From a virus (lineage: Duplodnaviria; Caudoviricetes): DNA of 53,659 nucleotides. The notes below the pieces were generated by a model. The model searched no databases. It was not told where the DNA came from and saw only the letters and a program-made list of their open reading frames with translations. This document shows positions 25,848 to 51,969 of the stretch, in pieces (position 1 is the first letter of the stretch; the number at the start of each line of letters is the position of its first letter). The position numbers were made by a program, and so were the translations under genes. The stretch is taken from IMG/VR virus record IMGVR_UViG_3300005259_000078, positions 1-53,659 of that record; one strand, written 5' to 3'.

Positions 25848-25898
25848 TACTATTTACTTATTTTTTTATAAGTTTTTATCATAATGCAATCAGCAAAT

Positions 25899-25941: not shown

Positions 25942-25966
25942 CGGACTGATAATTTACTACAGTGGA

Positions 25967-26325: not shown

Positions 26326-26346
26326 GATACTATTCCTTGGCTGAGG

Positions 26347-26595
26347 TTAAAACTTTTTGCCGTTATGTTCGATTTCCAGCAATTCAACTTCCTCCCGTTT
26401 CAAACCGGCGTAAATCCGGCATGTCACGCCATTGGCATCTTTCAACGGGATCGGGATGATGTTCTTGTCCAAATAGTCCATAATCAGTTTTTTATACTCC
26501 GGCAGATCTCCTTCCTGATATTCGCCATATTCAGCAACAAGGCGATCATCAATGTCAATAACGATCCGGACTTTGATGGCGGCTTTTATTTTCAT
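26347..26595 (-). CDS. hypothetical protein
   Basis: Operon packing, RBS. Confidence 0.55.
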   Translation of the reverse strand: MKIKAAIKVRIVIDIDDRLVAEYGEYQEGDLPEYKKLIMDYLDKNIIPIPLKDANGVTCRIYAGLKREEVELLEIEHNGKKF

Positions 26596-26598
26596 GAG

Positions 26599-26814
26599 TT
26601 ATTTTCCCTCCGCCTTATTTCCATTGGTTATCATTCCCCTGATCTCTGCCGCTGACTCTCGAGCCTCAATTCTGGCACCGGAAATCAGGTGAATAATTGT
26701 ATATGGTTCGCGGTAATCCCCCTCCCTGATCCACTCAATTTGATTGATCAATATGAAATATTCCCCGCCGTTAGGCGACGTTATTCTGATCATCGGGAAT
26801 TCGGGTTTTTTCAT
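26599..26814 (-). CDS. hypothetical protein
   Basis: Operon packing, AAGGA RBS. Confidence 0.55.
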   Translation of the reverse strand: MKKPEFPMIRITSPNGGEYFILINQIEWIREGDYREPYTIIHLISGARIEARESAAEIRGMITNGNKAEGK

Positions 26815-35298: not shown

Positions 35299-36132
35299 AT
35301 GCCGACGATAGCTCTAAAAATTATTTACGATGCCATAAAAATGGCAGTTGAGGAATGTGGCTCTGAAAGTGAATTGGCTAGACGTTGTAACCTTGAGCCC
35401 AAAGTTATTAACCGTTATATGAATAATAAGGTAAAACGAATTACTGAGGAAAAATGGTTAAAGCTTGAGCCTCATGTTAAGAGGTTTTTGCCTGCAAATT
35501 TGGATTGCGAGTGCATTGGCTTTGCTGTTAAACGTGAACCACAGCCTCAAATACTATCGTCTAAAATGATAAGCCGCGTTATGTTGGATGTCTTTGATCA
35601 ACTTGACTCCGATGCACAGCATGAGATTATAAAGCAAGCGGAGCAGTATTTGACGAAGCAGCAGATTGACCGCAACGAAACATTGATGCAGGAAGAAGAT
35701 GAGAAGTTGGTCGGTTTTGGTATTACTTGCCGTTACAATACTGAATATCGGTTTACAACGCAGGGGCTATGCTGGCTGTACAATGGGATTGAATATAATA
35801 AAAAGCATGGAGAACTCCTGACGGTGGCTTTGCTGAAAAAGCTGTTGCAGTCCGAGCCTCCGGTTAGTCACCGGCGAAAACTGTGTATTCGGGCGCTTGC
35901 GGTTGAGGTTGACCGCGACGAAATATATTATCAATATGCTTTCTATCTTAATGGTACGCCGCCCAAGCTTTATACGGCGGGATTTGATAAGACCTATCGT
36001 CTGACGGATCATTTCGAATTTTATCCGACACTTAAAGCTCCGTTCGGAGTTGACGATGAATCTTATGTGGAAGTTTTCTTTACGTCTGAAGAAATCGCTG
36101 AGTTAAAAGCCGGAAAAACTCTGAAAATTTAA
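35299..36132 (+). CDS. CI-like repressor (N-terminal HTH, unrecognised C-terminal domain)
   Basis: GSESELARRCNLEPKVINRY HTH; position divergent from early genes. Confidence 0.7.
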   Translation: MPTIALKIIYDAIKMAVEECGSESELARRCNLEPKVINRYMNNKVKRITEEKWLKLEPHVKRFLPANLDCECIGFAVKREPQPQILSSKMISRVMLDVFDQLDSDAQHEIIKQAEQYLTKQQIDRNETLMQEEDEKLVGFGITCRYNTEYRFTTQGLCWLYNGIEYNKKHGELLTVALLKKLLQSEPPVSHRRKLCIRALAVEVDRDEIYYQYAFYLNGTPPKLYTAGFDKTYRLTDHFEFYPTLKAPFGVDDESYVEVFFTSEEIAELKAGKTLKI

Positions 36133-36152
36133 CCTTTTACGACTTTTTCATT

Positions 36153-36866
36153 ATGAATAACAACATTGTTTCAAAAATACGTAATATACCTGTAGAAAAT
36201 TTATCCCTGGAAGACAAACGGAATATTGGTTGCTTGGTAGCAATTTTTTCTTTTATCCCAGGTCTTGGACATGTTATTCAGCGCCGGTACATTGCTGGAT
36301 TCTTGTGGTTTGTTGCAGTCTCAATTGGTTATTGTTTTGTAATTCCGGGCCTAGTTTTGCATTTTTTATGTTTAGGACACGCTATAGTTAAGTTCAAATT
36401 GACCAAAGAGGAAGAGCAAACATTGAGGACACATCGTCAAGCTCTCATTTTCCAACCCAAGCCCAAATCTGCAGCGAATCAGAAAAGACAAGATGAAATA
36501 ATTGAACGAATAAAAGTGGCTGATGCCAACCGCGAAAAAATTGCATTAGAATATTATGAAAGACATAATATTGCCACTCGCAAAATCCCCAAAGGAATAG
36601 ACGTTTTATGGCTCGAAAAACCTGTAATCATCAGTTTTAGATATACATCAATGGAAACTGAGGATAAATTGCGAACGATTGGAGCATATTTGATCTACTC
36701 CGATGGATATAATAAATTTATTCAAGGCTATTGCTTTTGGCGTAATGACGAACGGACGTTTAAGCTGGAACGAATTGATGGCCATATTCGTGATTTAAAA
36801 GACAATAAAACGTATTCTCCTGACTGGTGGGTCAGCCAAATGGTATGTTCAGCAACGGAGGATTGA
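36153..36866 (+). CDS. membrane protein with C-terminal WYL-like domain
   Basis: Hydrophobic FIPGLGH N-terminus; FRY...R.I...GYCFWRNDERTFKLERI. Confidence 0.7.
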   Translation: MNNNIVSKIRNIPVENLSLEDKRNIGCLVAIFSFIPGLGHVIQRRYIAGFLWFVAVSIGYCFVIPGLVLHFLCLGHAIVKFKLTKEEEQTLRTHRQALIFQPKPKSAANQKRQDEIIERIKVADANREKIALEYYERHNIATRKIPKGIDVLWLEKPVIISFRYTSMETEDKLRTIGAYLIYSDGYNKFIQGYCFWRNDERTFKLERIDGHIRDLKDNKTYSPDWWVSQMVCSATED

Positions 36867-36868
36867 CA

Positions 36869-37924
36869 ATGGCTTTGCGATTAATCGGCGAAATATGGCA
36901 TGCGTACTATAGAAATGAACACGGCAAATTAGTGACGCGGTCGACCGGGAACACGGTCAAAACGGAAGCGGCAAAGATTGAACGCATTCTAATGCGTGAA
37001 ACCAGAGTAAAACGGGCCAGAGTCCGCTTGGGGTTGGCACCAGCCTTGCTGGAATCAGATAAAAAGAACAGTCATAAGCATAGTCGGCGCTTAAAGCTGG
37101 CCGACGCACTGGAGGCAGCGGCAAAATACAAGCCGATCGGAGAAACCGCCATAAAGCACTGGCGGCGATTTGTTAAAAACATGCCCTATCGCTATATGGA
37201 TGAAATCACGCCTCAGATTGCCTATAACTATCTGGACCAGCAATATGGCGGCGATGATCACGGAAAGACTTTTAATAACAACCGTTGCAGTCTAAATCGC
37301 ATTTTTCAATTGCTACGCCTTGATTCAGGCATCGACAACTCACCGTTTGACAAAGTTCCCATGCGACAATTTTCGCCAATCGGATTTAGACCATTTTCAG
37401 AGCAAGAGTTCATACTAATCTTCAAATCATCAACATTGCTATGGAAAACAGCAGAATTGATTGCGTGGCATACCGGACTGCGCGAATGCGACTGTCACGC
37501 AATAGGCGAATCCAATATCAAGGATGGCGGGATTTCCTGGTTGCCAGGCAAAACCGCACGATTTAAACGCAAAGTATGGGTTCCTGTTAAAGATCAACTC
37601 CGGCGATGGCTGGATAAATTACCGCCATCGCTTGATGGCCGTTTCTGCGGTTTTGAGCCGGATTCAAGAGATAGTAATGAATTTGAAACCTATTTCACCA
37701 GACTGCTTGAACAACTCGGGATCAAAGACAACGAGGATGGACAGGTCGGGTTTCCCAGTATTAGAAAATCTTTCGTTACCAGGTTAGATGAAGCACATAT
37801 TGCGCGGCACGCCATTCGCGGCATGGTCGGTCATGTCAGTGACGATCAAACTGACGATTATTCCTTTGACCGCCAATCAGCCAAGAAAATCCTGGAGCTG
37901 CCAGATCCGGAACTAGGCCTCTAA
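36869..37924 (+). CDS. int: prophage tyrosine integrase
   Basis: TGLR, SIRK, VGH, Y; adjacent to attR; GGAGG RBS. Confidence 0.88.
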   Translation: MALRLIGEIWHAYYRNEHGKLVTRSTGNTVKTEAAKIERILMRETRVKRARVRLGLAPALLESDKKNSHKHSRRLKLADALEAAAKYKPIGETAIKHWRRFVKNMPYRYMDEITPQIAYNYLDQQYGGDDHGKTFNNNRCSLNRIFQLLRLDSGIDNSPFDKVPMRQFSPIGFRPFSEQEFILIFKSSTLLWKTAELIAWHTGLRECDCHAIGESNIKDGGISWLPGKTARFKRKVWVPVKDQLRRWLDKLPPSLDGRFCGFEPDSRDSNEFETYFTRLLEQLGIKDNEDGQVGFPSIRKSFVTRLDEAHIARHAIRGMVGHVSDDQTDDYSFDRQSAKKILELPDPELGL

Positions 37925-37927
37925 AAA

Positions 37928-37947
37928 GTATGTAAAAAAGTATGTAA
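37928..37947 (+). promoter_or_regulatory. putative integrase arm-type sites (GTATGTAA x2)
   Basis: Same motif and 12-bp period as 2012-2043. Confidence 0.7.
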
Positions 37948-37969
37948 CAATGATTAATTGTGCTTGAAA

Positions 37970-38003
37970 TGTGGGTTCGAATCCCACCTTCGGCACCATT
38001 TTT
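37970..38003 (+). repeat. attR core
   Basis: Exact copy of 1934-1967. Confidence 0.95.
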
Positions 38004-38061
38004 TTCTCCCCTCAAATCTACCCTCAAGAATGGTTCATTTTAGTGCCGAAGAACGGTCGTG

Positions 38062-38084
38062 TGTGACCTTTTTGTGACCTTTTT
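38062..38084 (+). promoter_or_regulatory. putative arm sites of the second integrase
   Basis: TGTGACCTTTT tandem (38062, 38073) between the att core and the integrase start. Confidence 0.6.
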
Positions 38085-38099
38085 TCGGAGAATGTCCCA

Positions 38100-40052
38100 A
38101 TGCCGGGAAAAAGCTATCTTTGCCGCCGGGGTCAATGGTATCATTTTCGTCTGCATGTACCGAAACACTTAATCGGACAATGGAACGATACCAGTCTTCG
38201 TGTTTCATTACAGACTCAGTCCTTGCAGACCGCCTTATATGTTGCTAAATTACTCTATCCATACGCCTGTAACCTAATCCGTCACGTCAAGGGGGTAAAA
38301 GTGGACCGCGCGTATATCATGGAGTTAATCAAAACCAGAATACAGGAAATTCTTGCTGTCCACGATGAAGGCGTGGTTGAAAACGCTCGTACTTCCCCGC
38401 GCAGCAATCCCGGCGAACTGCTGTGGACATACGACCAGACGATAACGCACTTGCAACAATGCCTCGCCGTCAACGATACCAAGACCCTTGCTACATATTT
38501 TGCTCCGCAGATGGAGATTGTCAGCGAAGATGAGAATGATGCTCCCCAAATCAAAGGCATTGACGTACCGCCGACCGACGATAATTATCTTTGGGCGATA
38601 CGAACCTATGCAAAGGGCATGATAGAAGCCTTTAAAATCAGCAAACAGAGACTTCAGGGCAACTATGATAACGGCTATGATTCACCGATTCTGCCCCGCA
38701 TGACGGAGGGCTTTAACGCTCAGGGTATGGCCGAGGCCGTAGTGCAGAAAATCTCAATCGACGATACAGTCGATTCCATGGTACAGCCGAAGACCGTCTT
38801 TAAAGAGGCCCACGCTGAAGCGTTTGTTCCCGGCATGAATATTGAAACCCTGAGAACGGTGATTGTCGAAATGGTAGCACCGTTACTGCCGCCCAAGCCT
38901 GAGCCTCTTCCCCCCGCGCCGCTGAAACCGCTTATCGACAAGCTTTGCGATGAACAGTTGAATGCTCATCGTTGGACCGAACACTATATTCAGGAAGCCC
39001 AAGCGTACCTTGGTGTAATGGTGGAGTATTTCGGACCGGATACCGATGTCAGAACGATTACTCGAGACCAGATGCTGGAACTTCGGGATAAAGTATTGAA
39101 ATGCCTTCCCAAAAACCGCAATATACGGCCTGACCTGAAAAATTTGACGTTGAGACAACAACTTGAAGTCCCCGGCACGGAAAAAATCGGTATCGTTTTA
39201 GTCAATAAATATCTGGACCTATTCGGACGATTTTTCCGCTGGTGCCTGGATAACAAAACCATTACCGATGCCCCGTCACGCAATCTGATGCTCAAGAACC
39301 CGGAGGCCGCCCAAGACCAACGCAAGCCGTTTACGAAAGCCGAGCTTATCAAAATCATCACGCGCTTGAACCCGAACCGTTATCCCCCGGATACGTACTT
39401 TGGAACTCTTGAGCGTGAACGATTTTGGATTATTTTGCTGGCGATATTCCAAGGAATGCGGGAAAACGAGATTTGTCAGTTGTTCATAAAAGATATTGTC
39501 CAAGTTGACGGAGTCCCTTGTATCAATATCACCGCCGATAACACAACGGCTCAACGTACCAAGAATGCGCCGTCTCGTCGTGTAATTCCGATTCATCCGG
39601 CATTGTTGAAATTAGGTTTGCTGGAGTTTGCGAATCGAAATCGGTGTTTTTGTAATGAAGACCAACCGAGTGATAACCGCAATCAGCTATTCAGGACCAT
39701 GGTTTATACCCCCAGACGTGGATATGTCAGAACGCTTCAGGTCTTCTTTTCCAAGTTCAAACGTGAACATATCACCGACGACCGGAAGAAAACGTTCCAC
39801 AGCTTTCGTCATAATTTTGATACCGCCATGATGAATTTAGGAGTAACGCAGTTTATTGTCGAATGCCTTGACGGACACAAGCGTCAGGGAGAAACTGCCG
39901 GACGTTATGCCAAGCCGCAAGTAGGAGCCATGTTGAACGCCCTTTCTAAATTGGACCATGGGTTCAATATTTTTGAAATCTTGGGAGCCACTCCGCTTTC
40001 GGATGAGGAAATCAACCGGCAGAAAGAACAGTTGCCGGTCTTCGAAAACTAG
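38100..40052 (+). CDS. large tyrosine integrase (DUF6538-like N-terminus)
   Basis: YL.RR..WYHFRL.VP, GMRENEICQL, KN..S.R.IPIH, FHSFRH, GH, RY. Confidence 0.92.
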   Translation: MPGKSYLCRRGQWYHFRLHVPKHLIGQWNDTSLRVSLQTQSLQTALYVAKLLYPYACNLIRHVKGVKVDRAYIMELIKTRIQEILAVHDEGVVENARTSPRSNPGELLWTYDQTITHLQQCLAVNDTKTLATYFAPQMEIVSEDENDAPQIKGIDVPPTDDNYLWAIRTYAKGMIEAFKISKQRLQGNYDNGYDSPILPRMTEGFNAQGMAEAVVQKISIDDTVDSMVQPKTVFKEAHAEAFVPGMNIETLRTVIVEMVAPLLPPKPEPLPPAPLKPLIDKLCDEQLNAHRWTEHYIQEAQAYLGVMVEYFGPDTDVRTITRDQMLELRDKVLKCLPKNRNIRPDLKNLTLRQQLEVPGTEKIGIVLVNKYLDLFGRFFRWCLDNKTITDAPSRNLMLKNPEAAQDQRKPFTKAELIKIITRLNPNRYPPDTYFGTLERERFWIILLAIFQGMRENEICQLFIKDIVQVDGVPCINITADNTTAQRTKNAPSRRVIPIHPALLKLGLLEFANRNRCFCNEDQPSDNRNQLFRTMVYTPRRGYVRTLQVFFSKFKREHITDDRKKTFHSFRHNFDTAMMNLGVTQFIVECLDGHKRQGETAGRYAKPQVGAMLNALSKLDHGFNIFEILGATPLSDEEINRQKEQLPVFEN

Positions 40053-40079
40053 CCCTTCTAAAACTGAACCTTTTTCAGG

Positions 40080-40113
40080 CCCCGTCAGGGTAAATCTGCC
40101 GGGGTATTTTTTT
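40080..40113 (+). terminator. putative intrinsic terminator
   Basis: CCCCG..CAG/CTG..CGGGG stem plus T7. Confidence 0.55.
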
Positions 40114-40227
40114 GCCTTTCTTTCTGCTCAAAACAGAGATTTTCATTATTTTTTGCCATAATTCTCAGAATTTTACCCCGGTCTTGGGATACTATATTTC
40201 AACACCTTAATTTTGGAGGTTGAAGAA

Positions 40228-40428
40228 ATGTCACAAGAGATGATGACGTTGAAAGAAGTTGCGGTGATGTTGAGAGTGAAACCCACGACCGTCAAGAACT
40301 GGATTAACTCCGGCATTATCCGCTGTCCGTATTACCGCGTCAACGACGGTAACAACTATCGTTTTAAAAGAGAGGATGTTGAGAAACTTCTCGTAAAAGC
40401 AGGAGGTGTCGAGACAATCTGTAAATAG
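40228..40428 (+). CDS. excisionase-like HTH_17 protein
   Basis: TLKEVAVML.V...TV.NWI..G.I...YRFKREDV; GGAGG RBS. Confidence 0.85.
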   Translation: MSQEMMTLKEVAVMLRVKPTTVKNWINSGIIRCPYYRVNDGNNYRFKREDVEKLLVKAGGVETICK

Positions 40429-40586
40429 CCCCCCCAAAAAAATGACCACAGTAATAACACTGATGGAGAAACGTATGAAAAAGGTAACGAGATTGAAAAA
40501 CAAACCCTGTAAAAAAAGGCCCGAGCGTGTTAAGCCATCCGATCAACTTACGTTGCTCGGATGTCCGCTCGGGAAAGGTGAACAAA

Positions 40587-41609
40587 ATGAACGAAGCCCA
40601 GAAAATCATCAAGCCGTATTACGACCTTAGCATCACCACTAACGACATCCGATTTCAGAAGATTTGTGATTCTTTGAACTCTGAGTTGTCAGAGGAAAAA
40701 CTCACCCGCCTGATTCAATATCTTCAGTCTGATAAAATAGACCCCAAGGCTGACGAATTGCGGACAAAGTTGGAGGCCTTACGAGAAGAAATCGAAAAGT
40801 GTCATCCGGTGGAAGTGACGCAAGTAGAAGCGGTGCCGGTCCCGGCTATCCCCGCGAAAAAAATCGAACCGTCCAATGTATCAAGCGAAAGCGGCAAGCT
40901 GATTACTTACCACGCCGGAACCCCGTTGGAAATTCATCCCGCCGCCGATTTATTTCCGATGCAAACCGCAACCGGGTTCGAATCCCTTTGTGAGAATATC
41001 AAAACCCAAGGACAGCGCGACCCAATAATAATTTGTCGGGGGAAAATCATTGATGGGCGAAATCGTTATAAGGCTTGTTTGGCTCTGAACATCGAAATAA
41101 AGGCGGTGGAAGAGGATATACCGGATGAGCAGATTATGGGCCGAGTTTATGCCTTGAACATTTTACGCAAACAACTAAGCTCCGGGCAGAGAGCCGTTAT
41201 CGCTTTGTCGGAACGGGAGCAACTGCAAGCGGAAGCAAGTGAAAGAATGCTCTCCGGCAAACCCTGTGGAAAAAATTCTACAGGGTCTAAGACTGATGAA
41301 ATTCTGGCCCGGAAATATATGACGAATGCCAAATATATTGCCATGGCCGCAGAGATTGCGAGTAATCCTGAACTATTAAAAAAAGTCTTTGACGGTGATA
41401 TGGATATTCGGGCTGCCTATCACAAGTTAAAACCCAGACCGAAGAAAAAAGAGATTCCTCAATCCACTCTGCCGCGTTATGTTCTGGAAAAGCTGGTTGA
41501 ATTTTTTTCCCCGGCGAAAAATTCCGAATTGCAGGAGTTGATTGCTCATACCTCCGGCGAACTCAAGAAGATGCTGAGCAAAAAGCTTGCGGAACTGGAG
41601 TCTCGATAA
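40587..41609 (+). CDS. ParB-like domain protein
   Basis: HPAADLFP, I...GQRDPI, IIDGRNRYKAC, NILRKQLSSGQRA. Confidence 0.8.
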   Translation: MNEAQKIIKPYYDLSITTNDIRFQKICDSLNSELSEEKLTRLIQYLQSDKIDPKADELRTKLEALREEIEKCHPVEVTQVEAVPVPAIPAKKIEPSNVSSESGKLITYHAGTPLEIHPAADLFPMQTATGFESLCENIKTQGQRDPIIICRGKIIDGRNRYKACLALNIEIKAVEEDIPDEQIMGRVYALNILRKQLSSGQRAVIALSEREQLQAEASERMLSGKPCGKNSTGSKTDEILARKYMTNAKYIAMAAEIASNPELLKKVFDGDMDIRAAYHKLKPRPKKKEIPQSTLPRYVLEKLVEFFSPAKNSELQELIAHTSGELKKMLSKKLAELESR

Positions 41610-43144
41610 TGATAACGATATTTCACCCCGACCAGTATGCCTATAGGCTGGAAGATTCCTTGCGTTTCGACAAGTTGCTGCCAACTCACTATCACGACAT
41701 CGAAGCCATCTGCGATGAGCTGTGGCCTTCTTTTACGGATATCAGGAAAGACCGGGCTAAGAAGAAAGAAGTTTTGGGCTATTTTCTGGCAAATTTGAAA
41801 GAGGGTCTGTTGCAGTTGAAGACCGTTGCTATTTCCCGCAATAAAAACGATTACGGAAAAGGCACCAGATATGCCCGACTTCATCTTTCCTACGCCAATG
41901 TCATCGGGATGTTGGACAGGATGATTGCCAAGGGGTTGGTTCATCAAGCAATCGGGTATTTTGACCGCAAGACGGGGAAAGCAAAATATTCCCGAATTTG
42001 GGCTTCAAAAGAGCTTCAGAACATTTTGCTCAAAGATATCCGGGGGAGGCACACTTTGTCCCGGCGCAAGATTAAGTCTCTTGTGGTATTGCGCAATCGA
42101 AAGAAGCAAACGCTGCTCTACCCCTCGACGGAATTCACTGCTGCTCTTTCCCAGAAACTGGCACAGTACAATCAGTTCATGGAGAAGTTCAAAATCTCTT
42201 ACGCTATTTCTTACCTACATCCAACGATTCAAAAGACCATTAGTCTTGTACGTCCTTATTTACCGGAAGAACTATCTCGTATACCACGTAATGAAGAAGA
42301 TTATGAAAGGTATGTGTATGAAGTAAGAGACTATCTTACTAAAGATAAAGATAAAAACGTAATACCATTAACAGTAACCAATACCAGTCAACAATATGAC
42401 ACCACCATATGTACACTAGCGGGGCACTTACTAAGGCGCATAGGATTATATGAACCAATATCGCCGGTAATGAAGGCCGTGTTTAATAGAGGCAGTTTCT
42501 TGCGGGGCGGTCGTCTTTACTCCGGCAGAAACGGGTGGCAACACTTAAATTCCCTTGACCGCATGAGCATTACTTTTGACGGGCAACCCACGGTGGAAGG
42601 AGATTTCAGTGCCTATCATATTACTATGCTGTATGGGATGGAAGGATTGGAATTACCGTTTAAGCCCTATGATGCGGTTGCCTTGGACTTTGGTAATATC
42701 ACGCTGAAACCGCTGGTAAAGAAAATGATGCTTGCCGCCATCAATACCCGGAGCGATGTACAGACTGTTGAGGTCATGAAAAAAGGACGGGCTAAACTGA
42801 AAAAGAAAAAAGAGATTAATGGTTGGCGTGATAAGTCGGACGACGACCTTTATGAACAATTAAACCAATCAGAAGAATTCTGGTGGGACATGCTTTACCG
42901 GATAAAAACGATTCACGCTCCCATCAGCAAATATCTTTGCTCCGATAAGGGTGGCTCTTTGATGAATCTGGACTCGAAAATTATGATGGATATATTGCTT
43001 CAGCACATTGATGCCGGGATTCCATGCCTTCCGGTTCATGACAGCCTTATTTTTCCAGCACAGACAAAAGACTGGTCCCAGTCCGTAATGGAAGCTACTT
43101 ATACCAAGCGAATGGGCAACAAATGCCAAATTTCATATGATTGA
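41609..43144 (+). CDS. compact family-A/T7-RNAP-like polymerase of unknown function
   Basis: RGGRLY, WQ, VEGDFSAYH (motif A), VKK (motif B-like), LPVHDS (motif C); TAATG overlap with upstream gene. Confidence 0.7.
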   Translation: MITIFHPDQYAYRLEDSLRFDKLLPTHYHDIEAICDELWPSFTDIRKDRAKKKEVLGYFLANLKEGLLQLKTVAISRNKNDYGKGTRYARLHLSYANVIGMLDRMIAKGLVHQAIGYFDRKTGKAKYSRIWASKELQNILLKDIRGRHTLSRRKIKSLVVLRNRKKQTLLYPSTEFTAALSQKLAQYNQFMEKFKISYAISYLHPTIQKTISLVRPYLPEELSRIPRNEEDYERYVYEVRDYLTKDKDKNVIPLTVTNTSQQYDTTICTLAGHLLRRIGLYEPISPVMKAVFNRGSFLRGGRLYSGRNGWQHLNSLDRMSITFDGQPTVEGDFSAYHITMLYGMEGLELPFKPYDAVALDFGNITLKPLVKKMMLAAINTRSDVQTVEVMKKGRAKLKKKKEINGWRDKSDDDLYEQLNQSEEFWWDMLYRIKTIHAPISKYLCSDKGGSLMNLDSKIMMDILLQHIDAGIPCLPVHDSLIFPAQTKDWSQSVMEATYTKRMGNKCQISYD

Positions 43145-43480
43145 ACCAAAGTGTGTGACTGGACCCGGTTTATCCGGTTTGCTCTCCGCTCAACTTCACA
43201 GACTTATTTTTAAAACAATCGTTCAGTTGTGAATAATGATTCAGGAATCATTCCTAAAAATTGCCATATATGAACAGCTGCGTTGATAAACGTTGACGAC
43301 GACGATAGAGCCATGACCGTCATGAGCAATAACGATAATCCTCATGTTCCCTTTGCCCGGAGAAGGCAAAAGAAAAAAGGTTATCTCAAAATTTCTACGA
43401 TACCCCGGCAATAAAGGTGATTACGTTCTTCTTCCCCCGGCCAAATACCGTGAATATCGCAGATATAAGTTTTTAAAGTT

Positions 43481-43544
43481 TTGAGCGGGGCAGTAAATGA
43501 GGAGAGACCAGTCTTGAGCGGGGAGAGTATCGCAGGAGAGACCA
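43481..43544 (+). repeat. tandem bipartite repeat
   Basis: TTGAGCGGGG-N9/10-AGGAGAGACCA at 43481 and 43514. Confidence 0.75.
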
Positions 43545-43564
43545 AACTTTCTTCCGACCGGGAT

Positions 43565-43593
43565 TTGCTTTTATCGCGAAAATGTTTTATACT
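43565..43593 (+). promoter_or_regulatory. sigma70-like promoter
   Basis: TTGCTT-N17-TATACT. Confidence 0.55.
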
Positions 43594-43684
43594 TTAGAAG
43601 CGAACAAATAAAGGGTTCATATATCGAATAAACCGACATTACAATCGTAAGTCATTTTTATAGTGGCTTTCTGCATTACCGTTT

Positions 43685-43832
43685 CTAGTCTAAAATCGCC
43701 AAATTTTCAGTCAGAAGAAACAGGGTGCCGAAAGTTACGTTCGTCTATGGGGGCTGTTGCTGTGGACGGGCGTATTTCTTTTGGGCGCATTCTTCATATC
43801 TTCTGACGGGCGTTTGGCGATGCCCAGACTAG
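43685..43832 (+). ncRNA. 148-nt rod-like hairpin (leader RNA or ssDNA structure)
   Basis: Six stacked helices, inner ones rich in G-U pairs on the + strand. Confidence 0.55.
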
Positions 43833-43922
43833 GTGTGATTGAGTGCGCCCTCTTTTTTTCGGCCTTCAATCCCGGTTTTGCTTTCAGCATAAATCAACCA
43901 AACAAAACGGGGAAGAAGAAGG

Positions 43923-44597
43923 ATGAAAAGGAAACGGAATTTTACGCTCATCGAGCTCCTGGTCGTGATAGCTATCATTGCGATTTTGGCAGGGATGCTG
44001 TTACCGGCGCTCAACAAAGCCCGAGCACAGGCTTACAAGATTTCCTGCCTGAGCAACATGAAACAAATCGGCTCGGGATTCGCGCAATATGTTGACGCGC
44101 ACAACGAATACTTTCCGGCGAAGAATACCACCGACGAAGACCCGAGCAACTGGCCTTACAAAATCGAGATGTCCGGGAACATTCTGCTGTGCGAAGCGAA
44201 CAAACCCTATCTGAAAAAACTGTTCGGCGTGGAATACATCTCGGCTACTACCGATTTAAAGACCCGCTATAATCTTACCACGGCGCAAGCGGTTAAATAT
44301 GGCACCGCCTATGCCGTCAACTTCTGGCTGGTGGAACATCCCAAGTACAATACTTTAAACGTCTTCTCCAGACTTCCATCGGTTAAAAAGATTCATTCAC
44401 AAGTACCGGTAATGGTCGATGGGTTAGACACCTGGACGGGGACGGACGGAGTTGGTTTGCCTCTGCCGGGCCACATTTCGGACTGCCATCCGAATAAGCG
44501 TAACAACGTACTTTACTTGGACAGTCACGCTGACGATATGGATAAACGTCAAGCCGAGCAACTGGCGCTTTTCGGCAATCCGTTCATAAAGAGCTAA
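43923..44597 (+). CDS. prepilin-type N-terminal cleavage/methylation protein with H-X9-DG-like motif
   Basis: [37 protein letters not shown]...NVLYLDSH. Confidence 0.9.
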
Positions 44598-45188: not shown

Positions 45189-45324
45189 TCAAAGTCGGCC
45201 TCAATATAGCGCCGACCACCTACCACCCTTTTATTTTGAGCGTGATGCGCCAAGGATAGAAGCCGCCCCCCTCATTTCACTTTGCTCCTTTTTGCATGGT
45301 AACCAACAATTTAAGGAGCTTACC

Positions 45325-46059
45325 ATGAATCAGACAGAGCAGATTTTAATCGGAATGTTACAGGAAAACACGGGTACGCATATGTTGGACAGCGGCGGGG
45401 ATTTGAATCGGCACTGGCAACGCAATCAAGTTCGAACTTTCATCAACGAACCGGCTTCACTTCTCAAGTTTTCATTACGTCGTAACGGACCGGAAATTGA
45501 GTATACGCGGAATGTGTTTCACTACTTGCGGGACCGGCTGGAATTCAACCCGGAACTCGATAAAGAATTCCAGCAGTTTTATAAAGACAACGATTATTAT
45601 CCGCTTGAAGCGATGGAAGAATTTTGCGGTCAAAACGAATACGACCATCAGACCGTTAACACTTATAACGGGGAATGCAACTTAAGCCAGACTTTGCAGT
45701 TTACGACCTTCGGTCATGGGTCCGATTTGTATGAACATGATTATGTCTTGCTTCAGATTCACAACGGTTGCGACGTTCGGGGCGGTTATACCATGCCTAA
45801 AGTCTTCACACGTAAAACCGAATGCGCTTTATATGACGTTGCCGACGGGGAAATATCATGCCCCCATTGCCGGACCTATTGGAGTACCGACGATAGCTAT
45901 CATTGGTATAGGGAAGGCTCTTGCGGTTGCGGGGCCGGTACTCAATTGGAAAACTATGACGCAATCGAAGGTGAAGCCGGGGTAATCGGCCAGCTCGTGA
46001 TTAACGATAAAAATCAAGCCTTCTGCCCGGTCTGCGGTCAGGGCATATTGGGGGAATAA
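45325..46059 (+). CDS. phage-like hypothetical protein with Cys pairs
   Basis: ENTG.HMLDSGG..R.WQRN, LQIHNG.DVRGGYT; CPHC and CPVC; AAGGAG RBS. Confidence 0.7.
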   Translation: MNQTEQILIGMLQENTGTHMLDSGGDLNRHWQRNQVRTFINEPASLLKFSLRRNGPEIEYTRNVFHYLRDRLEFNPELDKEFQQFYKDNDYYPLEAMEEFCGQNEYDHQTVNTYNGECNLSQTLQFTTFGHGSDLYEHDYVLLQIHNGCDVRGGYTMPKVFTRKTECALYDVADGEISCPHCRTYWSTDDSYHWYREGSCGCGAGTQLENYDAIEGEAGVIGQLVINDKNQAFCPVCGQGILGE

Positions 46060-46060
46060 A

Positions 46061-46297
46061 ATGATATATCAAGGGAAACGCCTTAAGGGGATAAGACTTT
46101 TCAAAGAAAAAGAATGCGGGGATTATCTGTTAATCCTCAATCATACCGATTGCATCGGGACGGCCATTGCCGGGAATATCTCAAGTCTTTGTTTATCAAC
46201 TTATCAGCATGGCTATTTAAACGGCAGTTGTTACCCGGTCACGTGGAAAAAACTGCCCTCAAACTGGCAAAATGCTTTTCGTAAATATCTTGCTTAA
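46061..46297 (+). CDS. hypothetical protein
   Basis: Directly follows the previous stop. Confidence 0.55.
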   Translation: MIYQGKRLKGIRLFKEKECGDYLLILNHTDCIGTAIAGNISSLCLSTYQHGYLNGSCYPVTWKKLPSNWQNAFRKYLA

Positions 46298-46339
46298 ACC
46301 ATTGCCCCCTGCGGGGGGCTTTACTTCCGAGGTGAAACT

Positions 46340-46495
46340 ATGACTATCCGCATGAACGATAACGAGCGCAAACTATGGGTTATGAACGACGAGGGGCTTT
46401 ATCACTGGTGGAGAAGTTCCCATAAGAGCATAACCGCTTTTGTCCGGGAAAACCGCGAAGAATTGGACCGCATCATTTTAGCAAAACTGAACTAA
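46340..46495 (+). CDS. 51-aa hypothetical protein (not in ORF track)
   Basis: MTIRMNDNERKLWVMNDEGLYHWWRSSHKSITAFVRENREELDRIILAKLN; GAGGTG RBS. Confidence 0.7.
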   Translation: MTIRMNDNERKLWVMNDEGLYHWWRSSHKSITAFVRENREELDRIILAKLN

Positions 46496-46506
46496 CGAGG
46501 CCTATC

Positions 46507-47091
46507 ATGCGTATCAAGAACATTCGTGTCTATAATTTTGAAGAACTCAATCCCGAAGCCCGGAGCCGGGTTTTAAAGGACTATGCCGATATCAATACCG
46601 ACTTCAATTGGTATGAGGCCGAACTCGAATACTGGAAAGAAAAATTATCCGAGTACGGTTTTCGTTACCCCGAGATTTATTTTTCCGGCTTCTGGTCCCA
46701 GGGGGACGGGGCATGTTTTGAATTCTCGGGGCTGGATATCGATAAAATCTGGCCCCATTATGTCCAGTCCGGCCAGATAAAACACGAGGAGTCTGTAAAA
46801 ACCTATTTGCGGGAATATCACCACTTCAAAACCCGGACTTTAAATTCCCGTTACAGTCACGAGCGAACCCGTGAACTCGATTACGAATCCTATACCCGCC
46901 ATGATTACCCGCATTTAAATCGGGAATTCAAACGCTTTGAAGACTGGCTGGAAGGTTTTCGGATTGACCTTTGCCATGAAATTTACCGAAGTCTTGAGTC
47001 TGAATATGAAGCATTGACGGAAGACGAAGCCATTATCGAGACAATCAAAGCCAACGAATACGAATTCACCGAAGACGGTTTAATCGCATGA
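46507..47091 (+). CDS. acidic protein typical of phage/plasmid early regions
   Basis: VY.F.EL...AR, IYFSGFWSQGDGACF, EYE.LT.DEAI...I.ANEYEFTEDG. Confidence 0.75.
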   Translation: MRIKNIRVYNFEELNPEARSRVLKDYADINTDFNWYEAELEYWKEKLSEYGFRYPEIYFSGFWSQGDGACFEFSGLDIDKIWPHYVQSGQIKHEESVKTYLREYHHFKTRTLNSRYSHERTRELDYESYTRHDYPHLNREFKRFEDWLEGFRIDLCHEIYRSLESEYEALTEDEAIIETIKANEYEFTEDGLIA

Positions 47092-47242: not shown

Positions 47243-47830
47243 ATGCGTTGTCTTATCTATTCCCGCGTTTCGACGGCGGACCAGCATTTTGAAAATCAGG
47301 TCTGCCAATTAAAGGAGTATGCCGAAAAACAGGGCTGGAAACTTGTCGGGGTCAAAACCGATATTTCTTCCGGGTCTAAATCTGCCGACGAACGAACCGG
47401 CTTGAAAGAAGTCTTCACCATGGCCCATAAGAAGCAGTTCGACGTTTTGCTCTTCTGGTCCTTGGACCGTTTTTCCCGCGAAGGGTCCCGAAAAACGTTG
47501 GAGTATCTGACCAAGTTGGATTCATACGCTATCAGGTGGCATTCATATACCGAAGAGTATATTTCCAGCCTCGGAATTTTTGCCGACGCCATTATCTCTT
47601 TATTATCGTGTCTCGCCAAACAGGAAAGAATCCGAATCTCCGAACGAACGAAAGCGGGGCTGACCAGAGTCAAAGCGAACGGCATAAAGTTAGGCCGTCC
47701 CAAGGTCGATATCGCAGTTATTACCCAAGCCCGAGAACTTCACACAAAGGGTCTGTCTTACGCTCAAATCGGGCAGACCATGAATCTGTCCAAGGCCAGA
47801 GCCTATCAACTTTGCAACCAACCTGAATAA
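47243..47830 (+). CDS. small serine recombinase (resolvase)
   Basis: YSRVST..Q, LDRFSR, ER..ISERTKAGL, GRP, C-terminal HTH. Confidence 0.93.
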   Translation: MRCLIYSRVSTADQHFENQVCQLKEYAEKQGWKLVGVKTDISSGSKSADERTGLKEVFTMAHKKQFDVLLFWSLDRFSREGSRKTLEYLTKLDSYAIRWHSYTEEYISSLGIFADAIISLLSCLAKQERIRISERTKAGLTRVKANGIKLGRPKVDIAVITQARELHTKGLSYAQIGQTMNLSKARAYQLCNQPE

Positions 47831-47850
47831 AGGATGAACACGCTATGAAT
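47824..47850 (+). repeat. 27-bp direct repeat, copy 1
   Basis: TGAATAAAGGATGAACACGCTATGAAT, also at 48981-49007. Confidence 0.9.
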
Positions 47851-47957
47851 GCAAAACTTGTTTTCGGCTTCGATTTTTTAACGTTTGACCAACGTCTTCA
47901 TCTTGCCGTATCCGCGTCATGGGCCTAAAAAAATACACTATTTCGAATTCAAAATTA

Positions 47958-48929
47958 TCACTTGGAAACCCCAGTTGGGCTTGATATTTCTCTGCCTGTT
48001 TTGGCTCCGTATTTTTTTAGTAAATCTTTTATTTGATTTGATTTTGCAACGTCAAGGGCAGCACGTTTACCATTGTCCAAAATATTAGGATTGGCTCCAT
48101 TCTCTAGTAATAGCGTAATTACATCTACCTCCGGCTTGTCTTCAACTGCGGAAAATAAAGCTGTTCGTTGCCATAAGTTAACTGCGTTGATATCAACACC
48201 CTTGTTGATTAGGTACTTTACAATCGCCGATTTGTTCCGGGGGGCATAAAGAACCAGATGCAACACAGACTCTCTATCACTCGCTGTTTTTTTATTTATA
48301 TCAGCGCCATTATCAAGAAAGAACCTCACTAAATCTATATTACCTTTCAGTGCAGCCAATAGAAGGGGCGGCGGGTAACGTACACCCATAGGTTCTTCAT
48401 TGACAATCAGAGAACAATTAATGTTATTTCCCGAGACATATTTCTTTACCTTATCGAGGTCGTTATTAATAATAGCCAAACATAGTTTTTCATCAACAAT
48501 TTGTTGATGCCAGTTTATTACAACAGGCAACCATATACATACAGCAATCCCTATAACCATGATAGAACCCAACAATATGAAGTCCAAATTTCTTCGGGCC
48601 CAACCGCGATATCTCTTTACTATAGTTGACGTTTGACTGCGTTTCCTCCTACGCCTGTACAGAGCAACTCCAATTATGGTCCCAATAATAACAATCGGAA
48701 TTATTTCGAAGTATATGAGCCTGGTAGTTTCAAATCCATAATTAGTGGTGAATTTGAATGGACCAAGAAAAACCCAAGACCATTCTGTATGGATAGATAC
48801 GACTCCATACAATCCGCCTGGTCCCTTAATACACCATTCGTCAGGGGGACCATAAAGCATTCCCATAGTGGCAGACATAAAGGAGAAAAATAAAAACATC
48901 GTAATGACTTTTTTCAAGATAGCCTTCAT
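47958..48929 (-). CDS. membrane-anchored ankyrin-repeat protein
   Basis: Three hydrophobic segments, then PLLLAALKGN..LVRFFLDNGADIN-type repeats. Confidence 0.88.
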   Translation of the reverse strand: MKAILKKVITMFLFFSFMSATMGMLYGPPDEWCIKGPGGLYGVVSIHTEWSWVFLGPFKFTTNYGFETTRLIYFEIIPIVIIGTIIGVALYRRRRKRSQTSTIVKRYRGWARRNLDFILLGSIMVIGIAVCIWLPVVINWHQQIVDEKLCLAIINNDLDKVKKYVSGNNINCSLIVNEEPMGVRYPPPLLLAALKGNIDLVRFFLDNGADINKKTASDRESVLHLVLYAPRNKSAIVKYLINKGVDINAVNLWQRTALFSAVEDKPEVDVITLLLENGANPNILDNGKRAALDVAKSNQIKDLLKKYGAKTGREISSPTGVSK

Positions 48930-48980
48930 ATGCTCCTCCGTAAAAAACAATATCGCTACAACAGTCCATAATCAACCCCA

Positions 48981-49007
48981 TGAATAAAGGATGAACACGC
49001 TATGAAT
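48981..49007 (+). repeat. 27-bp direct repeat, copy 2
   Basis: Contains the RBS and start codon of the ATPase gene. Confidence 0.9.
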
Positions 49008-50240
49008 ACCAATCTCGCCTATAACTTCCCGCTTGAATCCGAACTGACTGAGCAGGAACGAATCGAAGCAGAATCCTTCGGCAGGAGTGAAAACCTTTTC
49101 GACCGGATACGCGACGATTATACGAAACTCGGTCTGGTGGGGGAATCCCATAATAAGATTCTCGCTTATCTGGCCTCGGTCTCACGAAAAATGAACGACC
49201 CGTTAAATCTGTTAATCTTGAGTTCGTCGGGGGCGGGCAAATCCACGTTGCAAGATAAAACTTTGCTATTAACACCCGAGGAGGACGTGGTAAGAGTCTC
49301 CACGCTGTCCGATAAGGCTCTGTTCTATATGGACCGTTATGCCCTTAAAAACAGGGTTTTAGCCATAGAAGAAGCGGCGGGAATAAAAGATATGTACTCC
49401 ATACGGACTTTAATAACCGAAGGCCATTTGACTATCGAAACCGTCGCCGGGGGCAAGCTCAGAAAAAACACGGTCGAAGGCAAGGCGGCAGTCTTTCAGA
49501 CGACCACGAACCCGGATATTAACCCGGAAACGAAATCTCGCTTTTTCGTTATCGGGGTCGATGAATCCCGAGAACAAACCCGGTCGATTTTAGAGTTGCA
49601 GCGCCGTGCTCAAACTTTGGAGGGTATCATTGAGCGCAATCAGCGGGAAAATATCATCCGCAAACATCACAATTTCCAACGTCTGTTGAAGAATTATGCT
49701 GTGGTCAACCCCTATGCCGAATCGCTCTTTTACGGGGACGACCGGCTTCAAGCCAGACGTGACCAACCCAAGTTTTTAACCCTGTGTACTGCTATCGCTT
49801 TTCTGCGGCAAATGACCAAGGAAGTGAAATTCTATAAAGGCGAGATTGAGCTGGAATACATCGAAGTTGACCCGTTCGACATCAAGCTGGCAACCGAACT
49901 GGCCAGCGAAGTCATGGGCACCTCGTTGGACGATATTTCCATTCCCGCCCGAGAGCTCTTATTGGAACTCGATAGAATGCTTCCCCGTGGCCGGGAACGT
50001 TATCAGCGAACCTTCACCCGGCAAGACATTATCTCGTTTACTGGCTGGACTCGGACCCGACTTCACATCCACCTGCAAGAACTCATCGAGATGGAACTGG
50101 TCCTGAAAGTTTCCGGCGGGACCAATTCTTTGCAGAATTACCAGCTCCTCTTCCAAGGCGAAACCGAGCGTAAGTTTCTGCTCGGCCTGACCACTCCGGC
50201 CAGTACCGAATCACCAGTCCAAGAAAAACCTAAAATTTAG
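49002..50240 (+). CDS. P-loop ATPase/helicase-like protein (primase-associated C-terminal module)
   Basis: SSSGAGKST, LAIEE, SRF...DESREQT..I..QR, ARRD..KFL; C-terminal wHTH-like segment. Confidence 0.75.
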   Translation: MNTNLAYNFPLESELTEQERIEAESFGRSENLFDRIRDDYTKLGLVGESHNKILAYLASVSRKMNDPLNLLILSSSGAGKSTLQDKTLLLTPEEDVVRVSTLSDKALFYMDRYALKNRVLAIEEAAGIKDMYSIRTLITEGHLTIETVAGGKLRKNTVEGKAAVFQTTTNPDINPETKSRFFVIGVDESREQTRSILELQRRAQTLEGIIERNQRENIIRKHHNFQRLLKNYAVVNPYAESLFYGDDRLQARRDQPKFLTLCTAIAFLRQMTKEVKFYKGEIELEYIEVDPFDIKLATELASEVMGTSLDDISIPARELLLELDRMLPRGRERYQRTFTRQDIISFTGWTRTRLHIHLQELIEMELVLKVSGGTNSLQNYQLLFQGETERKFLLGLTTPASTESPVQEKPKI

Positions 50241-50399: not shown

Positions 50400-51785
50400 T
50401 CAAAATAATTTTTTCATTGCATCGCTGGCGTTATTTTTATTGCTTCTATGGTCAGACGGTGTTCTTGCTAAAACAATAGGATATCTTTCGTCTCCTGCCA
50501 ATAGAACTTTAATGTGTTTTCCTGAATCAGAAATATTGAACCCCAGTTTTTTTAATGCGGCAATATTGCTTGCATTACCCTCCCATCGTTCCAATATTTC
50601 TTTTAGTTCTAACTTTAATTTTTCTCGATTCCCAATAATAACGTTAGCGTTTGAAAGGGATTTACAAATATCATTTCGTCTAGTCCCTATTTGTGCACTC
50701 TGCAATTCATTATTAATCAGTTCAAGAATGAAATCCTGAATTTCACCTTTAAACAGGTCACAGTCATTTCCGATTTTTAACAGACTTCCATTTTCAGCAA
50801 TTGCCTGCTTCAACCGGCCAACTTCGCTTTGTAAATAAAAATTTTCTTTATTTATATCGCTTAATTGACTTTTTAAGTTCGTATTTTCCAAATCAAACGC
50901 CTCAACATATTGAGATATAGTCGCTTCTTTATCTTTCTTTAAGTCATCAATTCTTCTTTCCGAAATACGTTGCTCTAAATATCCCCAACTGTATTTATCA
51001 ATCAATCTTGTGAAACTTAAAACTCTAATTATTTTATAAACAATTTCATTAATAAATTCATCATGGTCGCCATTACGATTCATAAAATCGGGGCCTGCAC
51101 TTGATGGCCAATATATTCCGATAGTCCCACATATAGGGTTAATATTTTTGACATTCAATCCTAAACGACATGCAAATTGGTAATTAGGCTCAACAACGAC
51201 ATGAGCAATTCCAAACAATTTTTTTGCAATTATACTGGGGTTTATAACATAATTATTTCTTATGGTACTGGAAACATAAACAATAGGAATCTTATTGGAT
51301 GTATTTCCTCTAATTAACTTTGTTGCCAAATCAATTTCGCAGTTATCTAAATTGTATGGAACATTGGAAACCGTTAACGGTCCATCAGAATCTCCTAACG
51401 ACGCACACATACGCATAAAATATGGAATATGAACTTGGGGAATGCGTTTTTCAATAGCATCGTTTTCGCAGTTGATTTCAACGGAGATACAAGTATCTTC
51501 TGGAATATTGTAATATACTATTCTAGTTGTCCATTCTTGGGACTTATCACGCACAAGGTATTTCACTCCAATTATTTTCTCCGCACTGACATGTGTTTTT
51601 ATCTCTAAAGATTCAAACTTATTATCCGATGTAATAAACAAATTTTGAACTGGTATTTTTATTTCTGCAAGTCTTGATTGCAAAGTAGTATGAGGGCTTT
51701 TTTTTATCCACTCAAACACAATATGGAAAAAAACTTCAATGGTCAAGTTATTTTTAACTGGAAATGCAGTTCTAAATACAATCAT
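50400..51785 (-). CDS. hypothetical protein, coiled coil + C-terminal HicA-like motif
   Basis: Low GC; GKH.KV...TPSDHR..KN; GAGGAG RBS before ATG 51785. Confidence 0.65.
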   Translation of the reverse strand: MIVFRTAFPVKNNLTIEVFFHIVFEWIKKSPHTTLQSRLAEIKIPVQNLFITSDNKFESLEIKTHVSAEKIIGVKYLVRDKSQEWTTRIVYYNIPEDTCISVEINCENDAIEKRIPQVHIPYFMRMCASLGDSDGPLTVSNVPYNLDNCEIDLATKLIRGNTSNKIPIVYVSSTIRNNYVINPSIIAKKLFGIAHVVVEPNYQFACRLGLNVKNINPICGTIGIYWPSSAGPDFMNRNGDHDEFINEIVYKIIRVLSFTRLIDKYSWGYLEQRISERRIDDLKKDKEATISQYVEAFDLENTNLKSQLSDINKENFYLQSEVGRLKQAIAENGSLLKIGNDCDLFKGEIQDFILELINNELQSAQIGTRRNDICKSLSNANVIIGNREKLKLELKEILERWEGNASNIAALKKLGFNISDSGKHIKVLLAGDERYPIVLARTPSDHRSNKNNASDAMKKLF

Positions 51786-51969
51786 TTTTATGGTGCTCCT
51801 CACGTAATTAGACATTGGCTTAACGTTTAATACATATTGCAACACAACTTTAGATTATGAAATTCAACTCTATAATCTGGCTTATAAACAACTTCTGAAT
51901 TCATTTCATAGTATGCTTGTACTAACCATCCTTGCTACAATTCCGATATTCACCCATGAACGGTTTGAC

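Follow-up and report, generated by a model that had tools for sequence, protein, structure and literature searches.

A viral sequence of 53,659 nt (IMG/VR record IMGVR_UViG_3300005259_000078, here called the window) contains a myovirus prophage and, directly beyond it, the left part of an integrative island whose core module encodes a 511-residue protein predicted to be a minimal family-A polymerase. Our favoured reading, to which we give a probability of roughly 0.6, is that this is a winged-helix polymerase of the type published as TV-Pol (Transposon-Virus polymerase) and divPolA2, that it belongs to an island at a tRNA-Leu gene, and that it starts the DNA copying of that island.

Predicted structure of the 511-residue protein

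An AlphaFold2 model of the protein, built on a 25-sequence alignment, has a mean predicted local distance difference test (pLDDT) score of 89.1 and a predicted template modelling (pTM) score of 0.86, with pLDDT values below 50 only at residues 1–9 and 250–262. A Foldseek search against the PDB returned 110 matches at E≤1e-3, led by the Bst and Taq Pol I large fragments, apicoplast Pol, M. smegmatis Pol1 and the yeast mitochondrial RNA polymerase (mtRNAP), the best of them being Bst Pol I (E 1.3e-5). VIA, a structure search that does not rely on Foldseek, was run against 48,161 solved chains, and all of the top 20 are family-A DNA polymerases or T7, N4 or mitochondrial RNA polymerases (RNAPs; Z 7.2–14.6). 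Matches in this search include apPol (Z 14.6, 285 residues aligned), yeast mtRNAP (Z 13.9, 391 residues aligned, model residues 29–509), Aquifex Pol1 (Z 13.6), Pol nu (Z 13.2, root mean square deviation 3.9 over 234 residues), Klenow (Z 13.2), T7 RNAP (Z 12.2), T7 DNA polymerase (Z 12.1) and N4 RNAPII (Z 8.1). The DNA polymerases align to model residues ~150–511, which form the thumb, palm and fingers, and the RNAPs to residues 29–509. Residues ~26–150 match winged-helix proteins (eS19, MarR and PadR) at modest Z scores of 5.5–6.6, and no exonuclease fold was matched among the solved chains. In the model, therefore, the protein is a winged-helix head joined to a minimal family-A core of thumb, palm and fingers that lacks an exonuclease domain. 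An earlier examination of the letters alone (the sequence-only reading) had proposed a compact family-A or T7-like polymerase without exonuclease domain and much shorter than T7 RNAP, and had named structure prediction with Foldseek as a check; the modelled fold and the invariant catalytic residues described below bear this proposal out, a palm-type family-A fold being found in the predicted model only, and the lengths are 511 and 883 residues respectively.

Conserved residues

The sequence-only reading had pointed to three motifs in the 511-residue open reading frame (ORF) at 41609–43144, and all are present: RGGRLY at residues 299–304, EGDFSAYH at 330–337 and PVHDS at 475–479. To follow these across the family we aligned the protein with the 146 best representatives, each less than 50% identical to the others (n=147; length 401–659 residues, median 505). 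Seven residues are the same in 147 of 147 sequences (R302, R318, E330, D332, K371, D478 and S479), and four others are nearly so (H337 in 145, N379 in 144, D455 in 146 and H477 in 136). The N-terminal region is covered in 146 of the 147. The candidate catalytic aspartates D332 and D478, whose variability was to have told against the sequence-only reading, are thus fixed throughout, and conservation of this kind shows that the three motifs are more than chance resemblances.

In the model R302 lies in a strand (302–305) that follows another at 288–292, together making a hairpin; D332 is on strand 326–333, and the region of D478 is on strands 474–476 and 479–483. By position and spacing, R302 corresponds to the template-contacting hairpin Arg, D332 to motif A, K367…K371…N379 to motif B, and H477-D478-S479 to motif C. 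The equivalent residues of T7 RNAP, taken from its genome record, are D537, R627…K631…Y639 and H811-D812-S813, and the two proteins have a common spacing in motif B, with N379 eight residues beyond K371 and Y639 eight beyond K631. Motif-based assignment, as distinct from superposition, puts His337 at the place of the Pol I steric-gate Glu, Leu375 at that of the ribonucleotide-excluding Phe and Asn379 at that of the O-helix Tyr.

Relationship to TV-Pol and divPolA2

The only library match of the protein is to phrog_4756, a family of unknown function (E 5e-47, residues 286–510). A word-indexed protein search gave 26 proteins including the query, none of them with a precomputed Pfam domain. When a profile of 25 sequences was compared with 1.84 billion representatives, 13,118 proteins matched at E≤1e-3 and 6,384 at E≤1e-30, these being representative clusters at 50% identity, and most of them align along the full length. 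The sole name attached to the eight clusters whose source names were looked up (8 of 8) is 'hypothetical protein'. Victivallales and Lentisphaeria genomes contain the nearest relatives (45% and 38% identity); members are also found in Methylobacterium (nine records among the related loci described below) and Paracoccus, and a scan of viral contigs found 11 further distant loci.

The family is well represented in phages. In tblastn searches the C-terminal half was matched in 99 phage records and in only three plasmid records. Sorted by the first word of the organism name, the phage records comprise 85 from Vibrio (ICP1 among them), 10 from Aeromonas, two from Klebsiella and one each from Pseudaeromonas and Shewanella. 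The profile extends the match into the N-terminal half, one example being gp150 of Aeromonas phage 4L372D (E 1.9e-66, positions 20–441). ORF100 of Vibrio cholera phage ICP1 (NC_015157 53113–54780, 555 residues, annotated as hypothetical) matches the profile through its C-terminal half (E 1.2e-40), with a weak N-terminal match (E 1.5e-3), and by this comparison it belongs to the same polymerase family. Our literature search on ICP1 gp100 found nothing relevant. A protein of Rheinheimera phage Barba31A, a barbavirus, is fourth among the viral structure matches in BFVD (E 9e-20).

Two published descriptions appear to cover this family. Iyer, Abhiman and Aravind (2008; Biol Direct 3:39, PMC2579912) described the TV-Pols, in the account they give of the family, as proteins of 400–600 residues without a nuclease domain, with a thumb, a hairpin whose Arg is absolutely conserved, two metal-binding palm Asp residues, and fingers with an Asp and an RxxxK motif. 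A subset is said there to have an extra N-terminal globular domain and to be encoded near lambda-type integrases, gamma-delta resolvases or transposases; the organisms listed include planctomycetes, verrucomicrobia, Methylobacterium, Paracoccus and Vibrio, and a primase-polymerase role in replicative mobile elements was predicted. The window protein has the size (511 residues) and no matched exonuclease fold, the invariant hairpin Arg (R302), the two palm Asp residues (D332 and D478), and an N-terminal domain, and the window encodes an integrase as well as a resolvase. In the fingers K371 is present in 147 of 147 relatives, and the window protein has K367 in place of the Arg and K352 in place of the Asp, position 352 being, we infer, the finger Asp of the published description. 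Further points of likeness are the thumb, the occurrence, which takes in PVC-group bacteria, Methylobacterium, Paracoccus and hosts related to Vibrio, and the predicted role. The same paper mentions a Brucella element with a Bro-N/KilA-C gene, and a Bro-N plus ANT/KilA-C neighbour is present in two Methylobacterium loci (L027 and L029). Apart from the two finger lysines there are differences of two types: the paper links TV-Pols to D5-like helicases, whereas the island helicase is MCM-like, and it describes the N-terminal domain as all-helical, whereas our model suggests a winged helix at the modest Z scores given above. We suggest that the protein fits the TV-Pol family on the strength of this published description and of the model.

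The second description is that of Yutin et al. (2024; Virol J 21:200, PMC11348598), who reported divPolA2 in barbaviruses and other phages. In their account divPolA2 has an N-terminal globular domain, unrelated to those of PolA-type RNAPs, and no exonuclease; it is encoded by lytic phages of 80–140 kb in addition to a regular DNA polymerase, and was proposed to be either a repair DNA polymerase or an RNA polymerase. Our family profile has exactly one match in MG592441 (Vibrio phage 1.063.O), at 25466–26701 on the minus strand (E 6.5e-37, positions 37–442 of 485), and the coding sequence at this place is AUR84708.1, the divPolA2 type protein. Judged by this match the 511-residue protein is in the same sequence family as divPolA2, and the two also share a globular domain at the N-terminus, the absence of an exonuclease, and their structural neighbours (Pol I, mitochondrial RNAP 6ymv and N4 RNAP). 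The setting differs: divPolA2 is described as a gene of lytic phages, whereas the window gene forms part of the core module of a bacterial integrative island that encodes an integrase and a helicase of its own, outside the prophage bounded by attachment (att) repeats and not in a phage genome with a regular DNA polymerase, although this is a feature of context and not of the protein. The family is therefore already in print: it corresponds to those TV-Pols that have an N-terminal domain, and its phage branch has been named divPolA2.

The integrative island

The features of the island are listed in Table 1. A tRNA-Leu(CAG) gene is located at 1877–1962, and the 34 nt repeated from its 3′ end mark both the right att site of the prophage and the left border of the island. 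The 26-nt att core occurs exactly twice in the window, with none expected in 100 shuffles, and an Rfam scan found only the tRNA. A third att copy should lie at the right end of the island; the window contains none, and the island therefore probably runs beyond 53659. Between the two repeats 24 of 26 tested ORFs match PHROGs (sheath, portal, major head, scaffold, terminase and tape measure among them), a head and tail gene set that we take to be P2-like, and the claim that a myovirus prophage adjoins the island was correct. The prophage integrase (365 residues, 36827–37924) ends 45 nt before the right-hand repeat and is unrelated to the island integrase by BLASTP. The window thus shows two unrelated mobile elements in tandem at one tRNA-Leu(CAG), parted only by the 34-nt att copy. 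The GC content is 0.39–0.49 in the island versus 0.52–0.62 for most of the prophage. The host of the island is probably a Victivallales-type (Lentisphaerota) bacterium, and a DUF1559 pilin-like cargo gene on the island fits a host of the PVC group.

Table 1. Features of the island and its left border, with coordinates in the window
Feature	Position	Strand	Basis
34-nt copy of the tRNA-Leu(CAG) 3′ end; right att of prophage and left border of island	37970..38003	.	Perfect direct repeat of 1934-1967
Island tyrosine integrase, 650 aa	38100..40052	+	Pfam Phage_integrase E 2.1e-10, DUF6538 E 1.5e-7; phrog_1 E 4e-25
Excisionase-like HTH_17 protein, 71 aa	40213..40428	+	Pfam HTH_17 E 1.8e-12; TIGR01764 E 6.5e-10
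ParB/Srx-like protein, 360 aa	40527..41609	+	PHROG ParB-like E 4e-10; TIGR00180 E 2.8e-10
Predicted TV-Pol/divPolA2-type minimal family-A polymerase, 511 aa	41609..43144	+	Fold model, invariant residues, phrog_4756
AT-rich stretch inside the polymerase gene, lineage-specific insertion (residues 211-284)	42240..42460	+	GC and residue mapping
Two adjoining ~34-nt direct repeats (families D1 and D3)	43477..43549	.	778-nt non-coding stretch downstream of the polymerase gene
Serine resolvase, 195 aa	47243..47830	+	Pfam Resolvase E 2.1e-27
Predicted MCM-like AAA+ helicase with C-terminal winged helix, 412 aa, PF27228 family	49002..50240	+	Model and VIA

The co-oriented series of integrase, Xis-like helix-turn-helix (HTH) protein, ParB-like protein and 511-residue ORF noted in the sequence-only reading is present throughout, and the att repeat and the island's own integrase uphold its view of an integrative element; one correction is that there are two integrases, the 650-residue one belonging to the island module and the 365-residue one to the prophage. 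The TAA stop of the ParB-like gene overlaps the polymerase ATG as TAATG, the overlap that had been claimed, and the two genes appear from this to be translationally coupled. The ParB-like assignment is a sub-threshold call: there is no Pfam match at E≤0.1 and the TIGR00180 match is below the cut-off of the model, and in its DGRNR box the DGR.R pattern is invariant in the five closest homologues.

Related loci were sought with the 10 closest sequences, giving 43 (numbered with the prefix L), of which 34 were examined, leaving out six that are short or partial (L009, L014, L021, L041, L042 and L045) and three near-duplicates (L028, L030 and L044). A recombinase is encoded within 3.6 kb of the polymerase in 15 of the 34 by crude ORF calling and Pfam (tyrosine in 12, serine in five), and in L024, L025 and L032 tblastn revealed further matches of integrase or resolvase type no more than 8 kb away. 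A tRNA or tmRNA lies near the recombinase in many of the 16 loci scanned for them (within ~200 nt in eight and within ~800 nt in ten). This was the neighbourhood check proposed with the sequence-only reading, and the homologues are often recombinase-linked. Homologues of the individual genes recur in the same company: of the integrase, adjoining the polymerase, in L008, L010, L011 and L018; of the HTH_17 protein in L005, L006 and L008; and of the ParB-like protein directly upstream of the polymerase in L004–L008, often with overlapping stop and start, with a fragment in L009. This four-gene core, from the integrase and excisionase to the ParB-like protein and the polymerase, is a conserved feature of Lentisphaerota islands.

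A low GC content within the polymerase gene (0.28–0.39 in 100-nt windows over 42250–42449, against ~0.45 around it) is real, as had been noted, and had been taken as a possible internal origin. That idea is unsupported: the stretch codes for an insertion (residues 211–284) that is gapped in most distant relatives and contains the sole internal loop of low confidence in the model (250–262, pLDDT <50), and it contains just two marginal tandem repeats (TRF scores 32 and 38). The direct repeats downstream of the gene, with only two copies, are a weak candidate for a binding site or origin.

The island also encodes a putative helicase, whose model (pLDDT 85.7) matches MCM proteins in all of the top 11 VIA chains (Z 17.4–21.6), and MarR-type winged helices at its C-terminus (Z 8.8). 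This MCM-like AAA+ ATPase, which ends in the predicted winged helix, also matches Cch of the staphylococcal cassette chromosome SCCmec (5dgk, Z 11.6) and Rep of the staphylococcal pathogenicity island SaPIbov1 (8tch, Z 9.6); it differs from them in being much closer in fold to archaeal and eukaryotic MCM (Z ~21), and no iteron origin was found adjoining it. Homologues in PF27228 are often fused to Toprim/DnaG primase domains, and the 412-residue protein has no Toprim domain. Copies are present in L007 and L011 (59–61% identity), with weaker ones in L010 and L016. We regard it, from the model, as the probable initiator helicase of the island. The resolvase has homologues 63–68% identical on islands L007, L010 and L011.

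Role of the polymerase

For function, a precedent is offered by the staphylococcal cassette chromosome (SCC) elements. Bebel et al. (2020; eLife, PMC7581432) reported that CCPol of these elements, a TV-Pol, is a dNTP-using primase-polymerase once bound to MP, so that CCPol-MP is, in the accounts given there and by Rice (2023; PMC10061031), a biochemically demonstrated A-family primase-polymerase of an integrative element that needs a small OB-fold partner, and the only relative with measured de novo priming. Like the window protein, it is an A-family polymerase that lacks an exonuclease, and its gene shares an integrative island with those of a recombinase and a replicative helicase (PMC7581432, PMC10061031). 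It differs in that CCPol is recognisable as PolA by sequence and is described without an N-terminal domain, whereas the window protein carries a predicted winged helix, and in that CCPol retains the Pol I Glu and Phe that exclude ribonucleotides (PMC7581432), the corresponding residues of the window protein being His337 and Leu375. A gene resembling that of MP was not recognised. Because the helicase lacks the Toprim domain that its homologues commonly carry, the polymerase may stand in for a primase, an argument made in PMC2579912; a polymerase that could replace primase, with a primase-less helicase, would follow the logic of the SCC and SaPI replication modules.

We infer enzymatic activity, priming, use of dNTPs or NTPs, an origin, and excision and replication of the island along the following lines. 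The 650-residue integrase and the excisionase-like protein would excise the island as a circle, and the MCM-like helicase, with its own winged helix, would open the origin. The polymerase would be positioned by its winged helix, perhaps also by the coupled ParB-like protein, would make the first primer de novo and may extend it, as CCPol-MP does, and host enzymes would finish replication. A role as primer-synthesising replicase or RNA polymerase, as the sequence-only reading had it, is plausible, and the same prediction is made in PMC2579912 and PMC11348598.

Several observations weigh against this reading. The link to family A comes from predicted structure: the protein matches no Pfam family (E≤0.1), DNA_pol_A included, and no NCBIfam family, so that there is no polymerase link at this level, and the global TM-scores of the Foldseek matches are low (0.25–0.31). 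Phmmer against the PDB gave nothing significant, the 147-sequence profile found no polymerase there but only a winged-helix regulator (E 0.33), the 25-sequence profile reached mitochondrial RNAP only at E ~0.6, which is not significant, and the family alignment, when compared by hhalign with one T7 RNAP sequence, reached a probability of 0.14. A profile search of Microcystis phage Ma-LMM01, named in PMC2579912, gave no candidate, and it is for this reason that we infer TV-Pol identity from the published description. The window protein departs from its relatives at two finger positions, K352 (Asp in 133 of 147) and K367 (Arg in 139 of 147), although these changes are conservative or peripheral and the catalytic set is intact. 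Crude ORF calling left 19 of the 34 loci without a recombinase in the 3.6-kb range; the helicase and polymerase genes lie 5.9 kb apart and occur together in just four of 43 loci; no island replication origin was identified; and our literature searches found no assays of TV-Pols with an N-terminal domain.

The product of the polymerase could be DNA or RNA. A DNA-dependent RNA polymerase, acting either as a private island transcriptase aimed by the winged helix or as a maker of RNA primers like the T7 and mitochondrial RNAPs at origins, seems unlikely to us, although it is the alternative that survives best. De novo initiation is a hallmark of T7-type single-subunit RNA polymerases, and these, including the heterodimeric N4 RNAP II, have the same core fold as the model, the HDS of motif C and the Lys+8 spacing of motif B, at the end of which Asn is kept in all but three of the 147 sequences. 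Structural alignments with RNAPs take in nearly the whole model from residue 29, where those with DNA polymerases start only at ~150, and ten of 11 weak PDB profile matches are mitochondrial RNAPs, gapless over an LDS…VHD(S/C) segment that includes motif C, although these are the non-significant matches noted above. In the ESM Atlas a neighbouring cluster bears the name 'DNA-directed RNA polymerase family protein', and PMC11348598 raises an RNA polymerase for divPolA2, while describing its N-terminal domain as unrelated to those of PolA-type RNAPs; in this domain the window protein differs from T7 RNAP. The window protein is moreover ~370 residues shorter than T7 RNAP, lacks a Pfam RNA_pol match, and has Asn at the position equivalent to Tyr639. 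In an ungapped motif-A alignment the position of the steric-gate Glu is a bulky His in 145 of 147 sequences and not the Gly of T7, and CCPol, the only assayed relative, prefers dNTPs (PMC7581432). Nor was a cognate promoter set identified: a sigma-70-type scan of 37900–44000, with other promoter types outside its scope, gave 14 sites versus 9.3 expected from shuffles, and a terminator scan gave ten versus 7.2.

A role outside island replication, as a primer-dependent repair or translesion DNA polymerase or as a component of cargo or defence, is improbable. Repair is considered for divPolA2 in PMC11348598, because the phages that encode it have a regular DNA polymerase as well; a proofreading domain is absent from the family, and the island does carry defence cargo, with a Lamassu LmuB-like gene (E 3e-28). 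However, the polymerase has no PADLOC match, and its gene is in the core module conserved across islands only 30–45% identical and not in the variable cargo. Many members of the clusters looked up are on contigs of 2–6 kb, which suggests that they may be small replicons.

Mobilisation as a satellite by the adjacent P2-like phage was a possibility raised in the sequence-only reading. With the polymerase replicating the island for packaging in helper capsids, it is the least credible of the alternatives, to be given very little weight. The island abuts the prophage and shares its tRNA-Leu att repeat, and its arrangement, in which an integrase and a small HTH_17 protein are accompanied by replication genes and defence cargo, seems to resemble that of P4-like satellites, but the two elements share no repeat of at least 20 nt besides att and no common cos-like site in the part of the island within the window, the island showed no recognisable gene for capsid, scaffold, terminase or any known hijacking function, its integrase is unrelated to that of the prophage, and related islands adjoin a tRNA and ordinary cellular genes, with YidC (L011) and an AraC-type regulator (L010) preceding the tRNA and integrase.

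Other genes of the island and prophage

The resolvase and MCM-like helicase genes are separated by an ankyrin-repeat membrane protein gene (47958–48950, minus strand; Pfam Ank_2 E 2.7e-18), which has on either side a 35-nt direct repeat (47824–47858 and 48981–49015), the two copies being 91% identical. It looks like a recent cassette insertion, since in L007 and L011 the resolvase directly precedes the helicase with no ankyrin gene between them. To its left, at 45292–47091, are genes for two conserved island proteins of unknown function that match the phage families phrog_11344 (E 1.2e-34, with zinc-ribbon motifs) and phrog_5162 (E 4.8e-34); no homologues of these were found among the 43 related loci. 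The segment 50400–53659 contains Lamassu-like defence cargo, with an LmuB-like SMC protein (52151–53509, minus strand; PADLOC E 3.4e-28) whose frame runs off the end of the window, and a 481-residue neighbour (50400–51845, minus strand) with only weak HEC-07 and HicA-like matches.

In the prophage, two adjacent DNA methyltransferase genes (2683–4673) are at the tRNA-proximal end, one coding for a C5-cytosine methylase (Pfam E 1.6e-38) and the other matching phrog_56 (E 2e-50). Between the prophage regulatory region and its integrase (35299–36866) are genes for a 277-residue HTH protein and a 237-residue membrane-anchored WYL protein (Pfam WYL E 2.2e-7, PADLOC WYL E 5e-7), where the GC content falls to 0.39; this pair may be a defence or regulatory moron.

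Implications

The kind of enzyme is known, and what is new here is a clean natural context for it: the att-delimited start of an island, a conserved core module and a Toprim-less MCM-like helicase. A bolder version, that a winged-helix TV-Pol is a self-sufficient site-specific initiator which docks on an island sequence and starts a chain de novo without an accessory subunit, is speculative and we consider it doubtful. If it were true, there would be a site-specific initiator in thousands of mobile elements as well as in well-studied lytic phages such as ICP1, and if its product were RNA, no smaller single-subunit RNA polymerase specific for a promoter or origin would be known (~400–510 residues). 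An answer on priming and on the use of NTPs versus dNTPs would decide a prediction that is 18 years old, and would annotate a very large family (13,118 clusters, with neither a Pfam nor an NCBIfam model) that includes ICP1 ORF100, which offers a tractable system for the function of the family.

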